Assembly: GCA_964401065.1 (NCBI GenBank)
Contig: CAYNWY010000002.1
Span: forward strand, 1 to 25,993
Length of the DNA: 25,993 nucleotides
Reading direction: 5' to 3'
Origin: Candidatus Woesearchaeota archaeon
Lineage (GTDB): Archaea > Nanobdellota > Nanobdellia > Pacearchaeales > GW2011-AR1
Both the position numbers and the translations under genes were made by a program. The notes under the pieces are model-generated. The model ran no database searches. It worked only from the letters and a program-made list of their open reading frames with translations, and was not told where the DNA came from. The stretch's first letter is position 1. Every line of letters begins with the position of its first letter. Positions 9,436 through 12,819 of the stretch are shown here, one piece after another.

Positions 9436-10476
9436 TTATTTTACAAGCTCTCTCACGTTTTTTTCAAACTGTCCTATATCTTCTTTTCTAATCTGGGCTC
9501 CAACAGCATTTTCATGTCCTCCCCCTGTAGAATTTTCAAGCCCTTCAATAGATTTTAATATAATTTCCCTAACATTTTTCCCTCTTGCAGAGATATTTGC
9601 TTTAACTCCTTTTGTGTAAACAACTACTATAAACTTATCAGGAAAGAGATATTTCAAACCATTAGCAATATCTGAACTCATACTAGTATCTCCAGCATAT
9701 TTGAAAAAAATAATATTGCTTAAATTTCCACACTTTTTTGCTTTCAACAAAATTTTTTGATATTTCTTGTCTATTTCCTGAAATCTTTTGTGAATTGATT
9801 TATTTTTGTTGTTCTCCTCAAGAAAGTCGTGGGGACCTTCGGAAGAAATTAAAAATTTAATCATGGTTATTACATTGCTTATCCTGTCTTTTAATCCAAA
9901 TCCTAATATCCTGGCAATCCTTCCTATCTCAGAACCATAGAATATATCAAAGGCATTTTTGTAATCTTTACACAAATCAGGAAAATCTTTCATAAAATCT
10001 TTGTAAAAATCAGGTACTAAATTATCAGAGATGCACCCCACAACTGCCAGCCATAAGTCTTCTTTTCTGTTTGTTATTTTGTAACAGATATAGGTTATAG
10101 GTTCGTTGGTTTTCTCCTCTCCAAGTAAAGGATTGTAATAAATTATATATTTTGGTATTTTCTGTGAAGGAGTATCGTGATGATCAATCCAAACTATAGG
10201 AATATTTCTCTTTTCAACTTCCAGCACAAATTCTTCTGAAACCTCTGGCTTATCAAGTATAAAAATATAATCAGAATTAAATTCTTCAACTTTTCTGAAA
10301 TAATCTTTTGTCAGGGCAGGAGAGGTTTTTATTGGAAACCCCTTTCCTCTCCCAATATATTTTTGAAGAAGAAGAAAACTACAAAGTCCGTCTTGATCAT
10401 TATCAAAAAAGAAAACTGGATTCTGAGCAGCATTCAAATGGATTTTTATTTCTTCTATTTGTTTTGTACTTAACAT
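9436..10476 (-). CDS. DHH/DHHA1-family phosphoesterase (NrnA/RecJ-like)
   Basis: FFDNDQDG, ILDKP, WIDHHD, GCISD and the DHHA1 motif GGGHENAVG. Start moved to the ATG at 10476 (MLSTKQ). Confidence 0.9.
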   Translation of the reverse strand: MLSTKQIEEIKIHLNAAQNPVFFFDNDQDGLCSFLLLQKYIGRGKGFPIKTSPALTKDYFRKVEEFNSDYIFILDKPEVSEEFVLEVEKRNIPIVWIDHHDTPSQKIPKYIIYYNPLLGEEKTNEPITYICYKITNRKEDLWLAVVGCISDNLVPDFYKDFMKDFPDLCKDYKNAFDIFYGSEIGRIARILGFGLKDRISNVITMIKFLISSEGPHDFLEENNKNKSIHKRFQEIDKKYQKILLKAKKCGNLSNIIFFKYAGDTSMSSDIANGLKYLFPDKFIVVVYTKGVKANISARGKNVREIILKSIEGLENSTGGGHENAVGAQIRKEDIGQFEKNVRELVK

Positions 10477-10533
10477 GAAATAAACAAAAAAGTTTATTAT
10501 ATAAGGTTTTGGAAGGGGGAATATACAACTCAA

Positions 10534-10643
10534 TTAGTTATCAACTATCTTTAATATAATTCGTTATATTAATTAGTATTTTGGTATTAACAGATTGTAT
10601 AGATATTACTTAAAATAATTAGAGACTGTTTACGATAATTAAA
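10534..10643. repeat. Bipartite intergenic element, copy B
   Basis: TTAGTTATCAACTATCTTTAATAT (from 10534) and ACTGTTTACGATAATTAAA (10625-10643). Confidence 0.5.
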
Positions 10644-10652
10644 TATATTCAA

Positions 10653-11744
10653 TTATATTGACTTTCCAACACTAAGTTTTTCCCTAAGACTATATATTTC
10701 TTCCTTAAAAAAGGAGAGCATTCCTTCATTTTGGAATATTCTCAACAATTCTTCATCATTTGCAAGCAAAATTTTATCAAGAAACTGGAAATTTGAAATT
10801 AAAGAACTTATATACCTTTCAAGTATATTGGTCTTGCTTAAGATTCTCAAGCCTTTTGGAGAAATCTGCTTATCATGCAATTCTTCAAACAACATTCTTG
10901 ATATGCTAAAAGGTTCCAATAGAAAATCAAAATCCATTTTTTCAAGAACTTTTTCTGCATAAGAATAATTAGCACCAAAATAATCTTTAAGAAGAAGTTC
11001 TTCTTCCCTATCAAGTCCATTTGTTAAGTCCTTTAAGCTCATACTTACAATTGCTCCCTCTTTACCAAGTTCAATTAGATATCTCTTTACAATTTCTGAA
11101 ATTCTCTTTATAATCTCAAATCTTTGTATCACTCCACAAACATCTTTTACAGTAACAATTCTCTGCAATTCCATTAAATTAAGATTAGTTAATGCTTCGT
11201 TAAAACTCTCTCTTTGTTTTTCCAAAATTTGAAGGGTTTCTGCCGCTCTTCTCAAAATTTCAGAACTTTCTTTAAGTTCATGCCTCTTATCTCCTTGATA
11301 GATAGTAATCTTCTTCTTCCTCTCAGAAATTGCAATCACTATAGCTCCAGTTTGTTTTGCGGTTCTCTCTGCGGATTTGTGTCTGGTTCCTGTCTCTCTA
11401 GTAGTTATCTCTGGATTTGGAGAGAGAAAAGAATTTGCATATAATATCTTCTTTACATTTCCTGAAAGAATAATTGCTCCATCCATCTTTGCAAGCTCAA
11501 CGAGTTTCTGAGGGCTAAATTTTGAATGAATACTAAATCCCCTTTGGTACACAGAAGCTGTATTTCCATTATCTATAACTATCAGTGCACCCATCCCTGC
11601 ATTGACTAAATCATCCATTGCAATTCTTATTGAAGTCCCTGGAGCAACCATTTTAAGAACATCCATAAAATCTTTTTCAACAATTGTTTTCTCTTGCTCA
11701 CCTTGAGGAATAAATAATTCACCTATCTCTTCCTTTTCATCCAT
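10653..11744 (-). CDS. disA: DisA-like diadenylate cyclase
   Basis: VAPGT.IR, ELAKMDGAIILS (DGA motif), ETGTRHKSAERTAKQTG (RHR-like motif), AISER. Length and linker region resemble bacterial DisA; the HhH region is degenerate. Confidence 0.9.
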   Translation of the reverse strand: MDEKEEIGELFIPQGEQEKTIVEKDFMDVLKMVAPGTSIRIAMDDLVNAGMGALIVIDNGNTASVYQRGFSIHSKFSPQKLVELAKMDGAIILSGNVKKILYANSFLSPNPEITTRETGTRHKSAERTAKQTGAIVIAISERKKKITIYQGDKRHELKESSEILRRAAETLQILEKQRESFNEALTNLNLMELQRIVTVKDVCGVIQRFEIIKRISEIVKRYLIELGKEGAIVSMSLKDLTNGLDREEELLLKDYFGANYSYAEKVLEKMDFDFLLEPFSISRMLFEELHDKQISPKGLRILSKTNILERYISSLISNFQFLDKILLANDEELLRIFQNEGMLSFFKEEIYSLREKLSVGKSI

Positions 11745-11794
11745 AAAAAAAGTATAAATAAGATATATATAAACTTTTATGAGAAATTGAGCAA

Positions 11795-12700
11795 TTAAAG
11801 CAAAGAGGCATATATTAAGGGCAAGGCAATTGTAGCATCACAATTTACATCCACAAACCTTGCTTTTGAATTCATTTTCCCCCAAGAAATACCTTCTCTC
11901 AAAGGAGCGCCTGAACTCCCCCCAGATTCTGCTCTATCTGTTGTAATTTGAATTCCATAATCTGCCCCTTTCGAGAACTGTAAAGACTGTTGTATGAAAT
12001 TTTTTGGAAGTCCCCCGCCAATGTAAATAACTCCGTTTTTCTTTGAAGTCCAAGCTATGTCTATAATATCATTCACGTCACCAAATACTTCAACCTTTGT
12101 CTTTCCTTTTCCTCCTGCAATTCTCCCCCAAATCATCAATCCTATTCCAGAGTCTGCAATTCCTGGGCAAAAAATAGGAATCTTCTTCTCATAACACTTA
12201 ACTAAAATTCCTTTTCCTCCTTGTTTTGAGACAATCTCTCCAATTTTCCATAAAAACTCTTTAATATTTTCACAATCCTTCATTTCTTCAAAATGCTTTT
12301 CAAAAAAATCCTCAAGTTTCTCATAAACTTTATTAGACATTAAAACATTGTAAATTCTATCAAATCCCTTTTTATTAAGCTCCAAATCATCCATATTCTC
12401 ATCTCCTAAATAATGTTTCTCTCCTATGGCTTCAATTAAATCATGGGTTAGATTTGCCCCTGTAGTAACAAATACATCTACTTCATCAAGCATATCAATT
12501 ATAATCTCTTTCATCCCAGCCGGAACCATTGCTCCAGCAACCCCAAGGAAAACTTTGCATTCCTTATCTTGAAACATTAACTTCATAATTTCTGAAGCAA
12601 GTGCTACCTTTCCTGCTCCAAAACCTGCTCCGCTCATTTCCTGAACCAACTCTGAAACTTTCATACTTTTTTTAATATTTACTGGCTTTACTTCTCTCAT
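11795..12700 (-). CDS. dys: Deoxyhypusine synthase
   Basis: GFGAG, GAMVPAGM, TTGANLTHDLIE, IFCPGIADS, GGGLPKNF, GGSSGA..EGISWGK (catalytic Lys), DATIALP. Start could be 12700 or 12736. Confidence 0.92.
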   Translation of the reverse strand: MREVKPVNIKKSMKVSELVQEMSGAGFGAGKVALASEIMKLMFQDKECKVFLGVAGAMVPAGMKEIIIDMLDEVDVFVTTGANLTHDLIEAIGEKHYLGDENMDDLELNKKGFDRIYNVLMSNKVYEKLEDFFEKHFEEMKDCENIKEFLWKIGEIVSKQGGKGILVKCYEKKIPIFCPGIADSGIGLMIWGRIAGGKGKTKVEVFGDVNDIIDIAWTSKKNGVIYIGGGLPKNFIQQSLQFSKGADYGIQITTDRAESGGSSGAPLREGISWGKMNSKARFVDVNCDATIALPLIYASLL

Positions 12701-12819
12701 TTTATTTTCCTGAGAAAATGCATTTCTCTCATACAATTAACATAAAATATGATTTTAAAAAACTATTGATGATAAATTCAAACTATAAGTTAGACTATCA
12801 AAATCTTTTTAAATGAAAC

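Follow-up and report, generated by a model that had tools for sequence, protein, structure and literature searches.

Does a gene for a diadenylate cyclase that lies beside a gene for a DHH/DHHA1 phosphoesterase in a DPANN archaeon form a module that makes and breaks c-di-AMP, as a preliminary description of this DNA proposed? The two genes occupy positions 9436 to 11744 of the window, the whole stretch of 25,993 nucleotides that was analysed. Archaeal c-di-AMP has been treated as essentially euryarchaeal, and dacZ is stated to be absent from DPANN (PMC12699388). The proposed 'DPANN-like' host fits the names that the homologues carry, Candidatus Pacearchaeota or Nanoarchaeota.

Layout of the locus

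Both genes exist as described, on the minus strand and co-directional. The features of the locus, in window coordinates, are the following:

11795..12736 (-): dhs, deoxyhypusine synthase (Pfam DS, 319 bits), co-directional neighbour upstream of disA
11766..11773 (-): TATA-like box of disA, 28-29 nt 5' of the disA ATG, with a T7 run after it
10653..11744 (-): disA, predicted DisA-family diadenylate cyclase, 363 aa (NCBIfam NF010009, PDB 3C1Y, AF2/Foldseek)
11286..11624 (-): DAC catalytic domain of disA, aa 41-153 (Pfam PF02457, 89 bits)
10932..11276 (-): DisA linker helical domain, aa 157-271 (Pfam PF10635, 108 bits)
10656..10877 (-): DisA C-terminal helical domain, HhH equivalent without GhG hairpins, aa ~290-363
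10477..10652 (-): AT-rich spacer of 176 bp separating disA from dhh, inserted in comparison with the closest relative
10498..10504 (-): TATA-like box of dhh, TTATATA, 28 nt 5' of the dhh ATG, with CCAAAACC before it and a T6 run after it
9436..10476 (-): dhh, predicted CID-less RecJ-clade DHH/DHHA1 phosphoesterase, 346 aa
7460..8917 (+): proS, prolyl-tRNA synthetase (Pfam tRNA-synt_2b, HGTP_anticodon, ProRS-C_1), convergent to dhh

The dhh open reading frame runs from a TTG over positions 9436-10533, and its homologues place the start at the ATG at 10476, giving a product of 346 aa that is identical to the gene call P0001. This start fits the promoter geometry of the genome, where the TATA-like heptamers in front of about 300 of the 688 ATG starts have their peak at -30 to -27; the box of disA, at -29/-28, also falls within this peak. 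The preliminary description had placed disA 'immediately upstream' of dhh. The order and the shared strand stand, but the pair is not immediately adjacent here, since 176 bp separate the disA stop from the dhh ATG.

The cyclase and its origin

The disA product scored 324 bits against the NCBIfam DisA equivalog NF010009 (cut-off 201), while Pfam gave 89 bits for the DAC domain (cut-off 27) and 108 bits for the DisA-linker. It matched the DisA of Thermotoga maritima (3C1Y) over residues 12-353 with E=7e-60, and its AF2 model (pLDDT 83) matched DisA structures over the full length in Foldseek (E=1.7e-25), where it aligned with 3C1Y at 36% identity. The DGA motif corresponds to D88-G89-A90 and the RHR motif to R121-H122-K123, so that the earlier reading of a bacterial-style, DisA-like cyclase with DGA and RHK motifs is borne out. 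The DAC motif columns are conserved in the alignment of 29 relatives, and 39 columns, including DGA, ETGxRH and Ser140, are invariant among DisA sequences down to 32% identity. Regarding the third residue of the RHR motif, it is K in 36 of the 45 archaeal DisA sequences (Q in six, R in two and I in one), and RHR is found in 62 of 63 bacterial ones. Judged from these alignments, RHK is the norm of the lineage and probably no lesion.

The protein has the same order of DAC, linker and C-terminal helical domains as the DisA of T. maritima, Bacillus subtilis and Mycobacterium (3C1Y, 9Y4S and 7Y0D), and shares with bacterial DisA the DGA and GTRH motifs and a conserved Ser. It differs from them in having RHK instead of RHR, in lacking the HhH glycine hairpins, in its archaeal host and in the neighbour of its gene, a RecJ-like DHH gene rather than radA, the usual neighbour of bacterial disA. 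In the AF2 model, the linker forms long helices at 162-269, and helices at 299-359 make up the C-terminal domain with a pLDDT of 92-96. Neither the 3C1Y alignment nor that of the relatives revealed GhG hairpin signatures in this domain: 'FQNEGMLSF' of our DisA aligns with 'VEGIGEKRA' of T. maritima, and only the distant DisA copies of family f69 still have a GIG-like hairpin. Because the C-terminal domain has lost its glycine hairpins, control of this DisA by DNA is uncertain. On its profile matches, motifs and predicted fold, we conclude that the protein is a genuine DisA-family diadenylate cyclase, and it is probably active as such. Two ATP molecules would be condensed into c-di-AMP between facing DAC domains, and Asp88 of the DGA motif and Arg121-His122-Lys123 would hold the metal and the ATP, going by known DisA structures.

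DisA is present in 29 of the 401 genomes of the phylum, namely in 24 of the 27 genomes of the own family, in two sister families and in one other genus, and any DAC domain at all in 85 of the 401. Genomes of the own family measure 0.5-0.9 Mb. In an unrooted tree, the sampled bacterial DisA sequences fall on one side of a branch with 99% support, apart from the archaeal ones, and they match the query with 36-45% identity, no less than the distant archaeal clade does. The signalling had been described as 'retained' in a minimal symbiont, which is unlikely given that DisA was found in only one order and one other genus (29 of 401 genomes) and that the sampled bacterial sequences form a single group apart from the archaeal ones in the unrooted tree. 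DisA looks acquired rather than retained, most likely by a Pacearchaeota order, and it shares its ancestry with bacterial DisA, the direction of the transfer being read from the tree and the distribution.

The DHH protein and its family

Pfam recognised the DHH (28.5 bits) and DHHA1 (31.9 bits) domains in the dhh product, both barely above their cut-offs. The DHH domain starts near residue 20 of the 346, and the full motif set is present (DNDxDG, LD, DHH, SD, SxRG and GGGH), with D25, D27, D29, D75, D98-H99-H100, D151, R298 and G319-G320-H321 as invariant catalytic residues. No TrkA_N, CID, OB, PAS or GGDEF domain was found by Pfam. Hence, the description of a stand-alone DHH/DHHA1 enzyme beside the cyclase holds, with all catalytic motifs intact and no extra domain. 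A placement with the DhhP/Pde2/NrnA type is not supported by three kinds of comparison. The AF2 model (pLDDT 93) has as its best Foldseek matches MjaRecJ2 (7YKV, 1.3e-16) and the RecJ-Cdc45 of Methanothermobacter thermautotrophicus (7BHI); the top 16 are all archaeal RecJ2, RecJ-Cdc45 or GAN (1e-16 to 1e-14), and NrnA/Pde2 structures trail below all RecJ types, at 5e-10 to 1e-7. When the profile of the dhh family was compared with the PDB, archaeal RecJs were the only significant matches and no NrnA-type or GdpP chain appeared at E<=10. NCBIfam gave RecJ models only, all sub-threshold, RecJ_archaeal with 42 bits against a cut-off of 360. By sequence and fold, the dhh product sits with the archaeal RecJ/Cdc45 clade and not with the NrnA/Pde2 or TrkA_N-DHH types.

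With its best matches, the archaeal RecJ2 and RecJ-Cdc45/GAN proteins (M. jannaschii 7YKV/6TVV, M. thermautotrophicus 7BHI, P. furiosus 5X4H and T. kodakarensis 5GHT), the dhh product shares the DHH core, the long linking helix, DHHA1 and the catalytic motifs, but it is about 100 residues shorter, has no CID insert and scores far under the family cut-offs. In size, two-domain build and motif set it equals S. aureus Pde2/NrnA (8IU7), B. subtilis NrnA (5IPP) and V. cholerae PggH (7D62), and it is stand-alone like DhhP and CnpB/Rv2837c, with which it was compared by name; in contrast to the Pde2/NrnA type, its distribution does not depend on DAC. The substrates of two-domain DHH/DHHA1 enzymes of such a size are usually very short, and the characterised DHH-type c-di-AMP phosphodiesterases belong to the NrnA clade. 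The characterised archaeal c-di-AMP phosphodiesterase, PyaPDE of Pyrococcus yayanosii, has a DHH-DHHA1 catalytic part as the dhh product does, but the domain layout described for it, TrkA_N-DHH-DHHA1, sets it apart by an N-terminal TrkA_N that we did not detect in the dhh product (Jin 2023, as cited in PMC12699388).

A full-length match to dhh was obtained in 382 of the 401 genomes of the phylum. With E<=1e-30 as the threshold for an orthologue, about 360 genomes are positive, comprising 81 of the 85 with a DAC domain and 279 of the 316 without. Among the DAC-positive genomes, a strong orthologue is missing from G015, G361 and G377. Catalytic motifs are identical between DisA-linked and DAC-free orthologues; we looked for neo-functionalised copies among the DisA-linked ones, and the idea was discarded as no motif differences were seen. 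The claim that ties the DHH protein to c-di-AMP is at odds with this distribution (about 360 of 401 genomes, against 85 with any DAC domain). As a phylum-wide family (about 90%), found with a cyclase or without one, it is probably not a dedicated 'breaker', and its near universality suggests that its core job is independent of c-di-AMP.

The genome has only one other DHH protein, a GAN-like RecJ of DHH-CID-DHHA1 architecture on contig C5, which shares 28% identity with the dhh product over the DHH core only. A search for phosphodiesterases of the TrkA_N-DHH, DHH and HD kinds found no TrkA_N-DHH protein in the genome and only two HD proteins, both generic and of about 200 aa. By elimination among these kinds, dhh is the best in-genome candidate for the clearance of pApA or c-di-AMP. 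Concerning receptors, neither this genome nor four relatives of 91-98% completeness yielded an RCK_C, and DarA/PstA and the c-di-AMP (ydaO) riboswitch RF00379 were likewise not found in this genome. A single generic CBS-pair protein is encoded, and we rejected it as a c-di-AMP receptor (43 bits against CbpB, cut-off 125). RCK_C and CBS proteins had been named as the receptors to look for, and the genome yielded nothing of the kind beyond that one protein. As to the suggested roles in osmotic control or host manipulation, the analysis produced evidence neither for nor against them.

The pairing of disA and dhh and its readings

Conservation of the gene neighbourhood had been put forward as a check on the proposed module, and here the pairing came out well: disA precedes dhh on the same strand in 15 of 28 relatives of the order that carry DisA, across three families, and the gap is operon-like, from -1 to +3 bp, in nine of 24 pairs. 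This is the most conserved neighbour relation of disA. In the relative L069, whose DisA is 91% identical, the junction is TAAgATG with a gap of 1 bp; in the same-genus genome G363 the gap is 110 bp. An entire DisA clade, with 11 members, has lost the adjacency, and so has f69. Overlapping adjacency on the same strand usually means co-expression and often shared function, and disA and dhh are probably co-transcribed in many relatives, to judge from the spacing of the genes. At 64 bacterial disA loci, no DHH gene lies within 4 kb, which argues that the pairing is an invention of the lineage and not baggage from a donor. Two other candidates for a linkage were set aside. A 630-aa ORF in the relative L075 joins DisA residues 1-316 to DHH, but it lacks the C-terminus of DisA along with ~50 residues from the start of DHH, among them metal-binding motif I, and we took it for a deletion or a fault of the assembly rather than a functional fusion. 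A DAC protein of ~400 aa lies ~5-7 kb from dhh in five genomes of family f11, and was not counted as an independent DAC-DHH linkage, as it involves one family with several genes in between.

We used proS as a synteny control for the dhh neighbourhood. Among 30 dhh loci of the order, proS is a neighbour in 13 and disA in 16; in other families, proS adjoins dhh in three of 20 loci. In G349, G327 and G031, dhs lies directly 5' of dhh with no disA between them, and dhs-dhh-proS looks like the older block because dhs precedes dhh where disA is elsewhere or was not found. A further recurrent neighbour is Nre, encoded at most 5 kb from dhh in 22 of 66 genomes (14 families), where about 1% would be expected by chance.

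Having established the identities, motifs, folds, phyletic patterns and gene orders of both genes, we consider it reasonably likely that the locus holds two separate things, a probably active DisA and a housekeeping exonuclease of the RecJ clade, their activities being predicted from homology. The dhh product would be a DHH/DHHA1 phosphoesterase with two domains and two metals that belongs to the archaeal RecJ clade but has no CID insert; most likely it acts as an exonuclease, with ssDNA, ssRNA or short oligonucleotides as its substrates, and with a role in DNA repair alongside Nre or in the clearance of nanoRNA. The gene order suggests that disA came to sit directly upstream of dhh within an older-looking neighbourhood, made up of dhs-dhh-proS and, in other genomes, of nre next to dhh, and that the 176-bp insertion then uncoupled the two genes here, each with its own putative leaderless-type promoter.

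One could argue instead that DisA makes c-di-AMP and that the co-expressed DHH protein degrades c-di-AMP or pApA to AMP and sets its level, a phylum-wide general dinucleotidase or nanoRNase having been recruited by this order as the turnover arm. The adjacency in 15 of 28 relatives and the overlapping or nearly overlapping pairs would be explained by it, as would the intact metal- and substrate-binding motifs, the minimal two-domain architecture (as in NrnA, Pde2 and PggH) and the lack of a rival phosphodiesterase among the TrkA_N-DHH, DHH and HD kinds that we searched for, the only other DHH protein being a GAN-like RecJ with a CID. Besides, DHH/DHHA1 proteins are the candidates named in reviews for archaeal c-di-AMP degradation (PMC10249747). 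We nevertheless regard this reading as doubtful, given the 279 DAC-free genomes that have an orthologue with the same motifs, the three DAC-positive genomes without a strong one, the placement in the RecJ clade and not in the NrnA clade, and the different layout described for the characterised PyaPDE. Moreover, the adjacency is gone in the clade of 11 and in f69, an insertion with its own promoter splits the pair in this genome, and the unrelated, convergent proS is about as conserved a neighbour as disA. The wider form of the idea, that Nanoarchaeota have in the dhh product their missing dinucleotidase or nanoRNase, wired in Pacearchaeales to a horizontally acquired DisA and often as an operon, we would hold only tentatively, as a rather unlikely one.

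The closeness of the dhh product to archaeal RecJ nucleases, in sequence and fold, can also be read as a sign that DisA is wired to DNA repair, with c-di-AMP reporting on or regulating resection and repair. The arrangement recalls the bacterial radA-disA operon, in which DisA likewise sits beside a DNA-repair-type gene and is often co-transcribed with it, although there RadA/Sms is upstream of disA and here a RecJ-like DHH nuclease is downstream. The recurrence near dhh of Nre, a repair factor that binds PCNA, points the same way, as do the loci of G218, G348 and G342, where the gene for Nre and the disA-dhh pair diverge. NreA acts in the repair of mitomycin-C damage, and no enzymatic activity is known for it (PMC4929162). 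Against it, the HhH hairpins of DisA are degenerate in the lineage, the nre gene of this genome is on another contig (C18), and the neighbourhood alone is weak evidence because the synteny with proS is retained too, so that we find such a DNA-integrity role quite improbable. Finally, the variable third RHR position (K, Q, I or R), the lost HhH motifs and the L075 deletion, in which shortened parts of DisA and DHH are joined, would suit a DisA that is inactive or decaying, with its adjacency to dhh a pure accident of history. But DisA is still full-length in 24 of the 27 members of a family whose genomes measure 0.5-0.9 Mb, and 39 of its columns do not vary even where identity falls to 32%. That reduced genomes conserve it so well speaks for a function and makes decay a very remote prospect.

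If the dhh product did turn over c-di-AMP, it would be the first c-di-AMP/pApA phosphodiesterase of the RecJ clade, and a second-messenger circuit would be complete in DPANN, with receptors of none of the known kinds. For the DPANN c-di-AMP makers as they stand, none of the searched known receptor types was found. The locus is also a caution on gene adjacency, as an operon-like neighbour from the 'right' superfamily is here a phylum-wide housekeeping gene. The recurrent pairing of Nre with a mini-RecJ offers a testable lead on the biochemistry of the NreA pathway. With a DAC domain in 85 of 401 Nanoarchaeota genomes, and full DisA concentrated in one order, some of the smallest genomes among archaea probably encode c-di-AMP synthesis.

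The disA locus and its diadenylate cyclase

The source genome is an 869-kb assembly in 138 contigs (82% complete, about 30% G+C), of which the window is contig C2. Homologues in public records are named Candidatus Pacearchaeota or Nanoarchaeota archaeon, so the preliminary description of this DNA was right to call the host 'DPANN-like'. It had also reported a DisA-like cyclase gene and a co-directional DHH/DHHA1 gene, and we found both on the minus strand, where three genes run in the same direction above a convergent proS:

11795-12736, minus strand: dhs, deoxyhypusine synthase (Pfam DS, 319 bits)
10653-11744, minus strand: disA, 363 aa, DAC domain plus DisA linker
10533 (TTG) to 9436, minus strand: mechanical ORF of the DHH/DHHA1 gene dhh; start ATG at 10476, 346 aa
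7460-8917, convergent to dhh: proS, prolyl-tRNA synthetase
-29 from the disA ATG, minus strand: TATA-like box AAAAGTTTATATA, then a T7 run just before the ATG
-28 from the dhh ATG, minus strand, in the spacer 10477-10652: TATA-like box CCAAAACCTTATATAA, then a T6 run just before the ATG

For dhh we follow the start shared by its homologues and by P0001, the public gene call.

In Pfam, the cyclase gave 89 bits for the DAC domain and 108 bits for the DisA-specific linker. It passes the NCBI DisA equivalog with 324 bits (cut-off 201), and the DacZ, CdaA, CdaS and CdaM models scored far under their cut-offs on the same protein. Thermotoga maritima DisA aligned to residues 12-353 (E=7e-60), and the AlphaFold model (pLDDT 83) aligned with crystal and cryo-EM structures of DisA across some 348 columns (E=1.7e-25). 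The domains, the equivalog score and the structural match thus bear out a bacterial-style cyclase, and both motifs ascribed to it are present, as D88-G89-A90 and, at the RHR position, R121-H122-K123. The third residue of the latter is K in 36 of 45 archaeal DisA proteins (Q in 6, R in 2, I in 1), compared with R in 62 of 63 bacterial ones, so RHK is characteristic of the lineage, not a defect peculiar to this protein. The protein shares the DAC-linker order of T. maritima DisA but is missing its HhH hairpins: the C-terminal helical bundle, confidently modelled (helices 299-359, pLDDT 92-96), has no GhG hairpins and reads 'FQNEGMLSF' in place of 'VEGIGEKRA', a GIG-like hairpin being kept only in distant DisA copies of family f69. 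The genome also carries a second DAC protein (197 aa, DGA and GTRHS, C-terminal membrane helix; contig C88, L002:1291-1884, minus strand), and about half of the family's genomes have similar DAC genes of around 200 aa.

Regarding distribution, DisA was detected in 28 of 400 sampled genomes of the phylum (29/401 with our own): 24 of 27 in the same family, the single sampled genome from each of two sister families, and two from one further genus. The best non-archaeal matches came from Bacillota at 36-45% identity, level with the likeness of the distant archaeal clade to the query. In an unrooted maximum-likelihood tree of 109 sequences, a branch with SH-aLRT 99 separated the 64 bacterial rows from the 45 archaeal ones. 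Given the narrow archaeal distribution, one order and one other genus within the phylum, and the wide bacterial one, acquisition of disA by the archaeal lineage would be the simpler reading, and the idea that signalling had been 'retained' in a minimal symbiont loses its support. NCBI already labels these proteins DisA in Pacearchaeota MAGs, and we found no discussion of DisA in DPANN in the literature searched; a 2025 paper gives dacZ as absent from DPANN (PMC12699388). At the f69 loci (L032:780-2505 and L033), a small membrane protein that, from sequence reading only, resembles an ion-channel fragment lies directly upstream of disA in the same direction, with a LAGLIDADG-like ORF on the other side.

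A DHH protein of RecJ type, with and without cyclases

In the AlphaFold model of the DHH protein (pLDDT 93), a linking helix of 25 residues joins the DHH domain to the DHHA1 domain. The protein lacks the CID insert of archaeal RecJ/GAN, and we refer to it as mini-RecJ. Its catalytic motifs (D25, D27, D29-G30, D75, D98-H99-H100, D151, S296, R298 and G319-G320-H321) are invariant in a 43-sequence alignment. NCBIfam returned RecJ models only, all sub-threshold (42 bits against cut-offs of 360-397), and the PDB chains that the family profile matched were all archaeal and RecJ-type (2e-8 to 3e-7), with no NrnA, Pde2, GdpP or CnpB chain even at E<=10. Foldseek ranked Methanocaldococcus jannaschii RecJ2, Methanothermobacter thermautotrophicus RecJ-Cdc45 and P. 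furiosus/T. kodakarensis GAN at the top (1e-16 to 3e-14), followed by a methanogen PAP phosphatase (6e-14) and bacterial RecJ, and then by Staphylococcus aureus Pde2/NrnA (5e-10), PggH and Bacillus subtilis NrnA. Archaeal RecJ2, RecJ-Cdc45 and GAN are therefore its best match in both sequence and fold, CID apart; these comparisons point to the RecJ clade, and the suggested DhhP/Pde2 type was not borne out. Makarova 2012 describes the RecJ clade as distinct from the one containing the characterised nanoRNase NrnB (COG2404), predicting nanoRNase activity for archaeal members of the latter (PMC3307487). PyaPDE, cited in PMC12699388 as the sole archaeal c-di-AMP phosphodiesterase characterised so far, is a TrkA_N-DHH-DHHA1 protein, and its TrkA_N domain is not present in mini-RecJ. 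The only other DHH protein of the genome (contig C5, 445 aa, DHH-CID-DHHA1, 320 bits with RecJ_archaeal) is 28% identical to mini-RecJ, over the DHH core only.

Of 401 genomes, 382 had a full-length dhh orthologue (35-87% identity), some 360 of these reaching E<=1e-30, and 85 had a DAC domain of any kind. The orthologue occurs in 81 of the 85 DAC-positive genomes (G015, G361 and G377 lack a strong match) and in 279 of the 316 DAC-negative ones. No difference in catalytic motifs separates copies linked to DisA from unlinked ones of the same family or from those of DAC-free families. According to these results, the core function of the DHH protein is independent of c-di-AMP, against the tie that had been proposed.

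Gene order and transcription signals

Among 28 DisA-bearing relatives, dhh lies directly downstream of disA on the same strand in 12 and with one gene interposed in 3, so adjacency is kept in 15; in 12 it lies elsewhere, and 1 locus is cut off by a contig edge. Among the named genomes of GTDB, dhh adjoins disA within 4 kb in 10 of 16 archaeal loci and 0 of 64 bacterial ones. Of 24 same-strand pairs, 9 have the dhh ATG at -1 to +3 bp from the disA stop; 8 have a gap of 15-63 bp, 4 one of 110-176 bp and 3 one of more than 500 bp. Adjacency is kept on the basal f2, f3 and L128 branches of the DisA tree. Copies without it comprise a single clade of 11, f69 and three isolated tips, so the pairing is old in the order, with a few losses since. 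We take it as real evidence for co-expression.

Three controls weaken adjacency as evidence of shared function. dhs directly precedes dhh in G349 (overlapping, DisA not found) and in G327 and G031 (DisA elsewhere), so the dhs-dhh pair exists without disA, which is interposed only in some genomes. Besides, proS, convergent and of unrelated function, adjoins dhh in 13 of 30 loci of the order and still in 3 of 20 from other families; the in-order figure for disA is 16 of 30. Finally, the cyclase gene had been described as 'immediately' upstream, but 176 bp separate the pair here; the closest relative (L069, DisA 91% identical) reads TAAgATG at the junction, and a same-genus genome has 110 bp. The spacer 10477-10652 is thus an insertion relative to L069.

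Genome-wide, TATA-like heptamers peak 30-27 nt before the ATG, where about 300 of the 688 genes bear one, versus some 10-15 per 2-nt bin elsewhere. This sharp peak indicates mostly leaderless mRNAs, and its position can help in assigning start codons in this lineage. Since each gene is preceded by a TATA box at the canonical distance, that of dhh within the insertion, disA and dhh look like separate transcription units in this genome.

Two other arrangements were observed. In five f11 genomes (G200:C4, G120:C2, G273:C6, G070:C3 and G304:C22), a DAC protein of about 400 aa and other architecture lies 5-7 kb from dhh on the same strand. In a Pacearchaeota MAG (L075:4001-5893, LacPavin_0920_SED2_MAG_35_12), a single 630-aa ORF joins DisA 1-316 to a DHH protein without its first ~50 residues, motif I included; we rejected it as a clean fusion and read it as a junction-spanning deletion or a fault of assembly.

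Receptors, Nre and the readings of the locus

The preliminary description proposed a c-di-AMP make/break module for osmotic control or host manipulation, to be checked by searching for RCK_C/CBS receptors. No RCK_C (TrkA_C) was found in the genome, and none of five relatives of 91-98% completeness had one above threshold; the f3 relative gave no more than two matches, both sub-threshold. The CBS search returned one CBS-pair protein (contig C38, L065:1285-1845; 186 aa, C-terminal CxxC...CxxC zinc ribbon), below threshold for CbpB (43 bits, cut-off 125). With no DarA/PstA or ydaO riboswitch found in the genome either, osmotic, K+-gating control is left without support. A type II topoisomerase B-subunit-like ORF on contig C53 (L067:1-1374) apparently has a mini-intein (CFSGDTKV ... 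VHNS), judging from its translation.

In DAC-free families, the most recurrent neighbour of dhh is archaeal Nre (Pfam Nre_N 252 bits, Nre_C 92 bits), often divergent and 116-292 bp away (L152:1710-4053, L155:1707-4032, L016:1-3582, L018:424-4014). When the listed positions from the phylum-wide searches for the two genes are compared, 22 of 66 genomes, belonging to 14 families, have Nre within 5 kb of dhh (chance expectation about 1%), and individual loci add three more families. As described in PMC4929162, NreA binds PCNA and Haloferax needs it to repair mitomycin-C damage; no enzymatic activity is known for it. This proximity and the RecJ-type fold favour a predicted role for mini-RecJ as a DNA-repair exonuclease; as the proS control indicates that synteny decays slowly in the phylum, the Nre-dhh link is a lead, not proof.

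We lean, with moderate confidence, towards a real, probably active DisA (by prediction), horizontally derived, beside a housekeeping CID-less exonuclease of the RecJ clade, in an adjacency that is order-specific, often operonic and broken here by an insertion. That DisA makes c-di-AMP and the DHH protein degrades it or pApA is partly supported, by the conserved order, the genuine DisA and the intact DHH motifs, but the RecJ clade and the DAC-independent occurrence speak against it. No GdpP-type or TrkA_N-DHH protein was found in the genome, which has two generic HD proteins of 200 aa; by elimination, mini-RecJ is the only obvious candidate for clearing pApA or c-di-AMP, and for this reason we keep the make/break reading as a doubtful but serious possibility. 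A DNA-integrity module with Nre seems to us unlikely, a rank below that: in its favour, Nre is divergent from the disA-dhh pair in G218, G348 and G342; against it, nre in our genome lies on contig C18, apart from dhh. An accidental neighbourhood with a decaying DisA is very improbable.

The side observation of Nre with mini-RecJ may be a more useful lead than the DisA finding. This pairing could be a clue to the enzyme that is missing as a partner of NreA.
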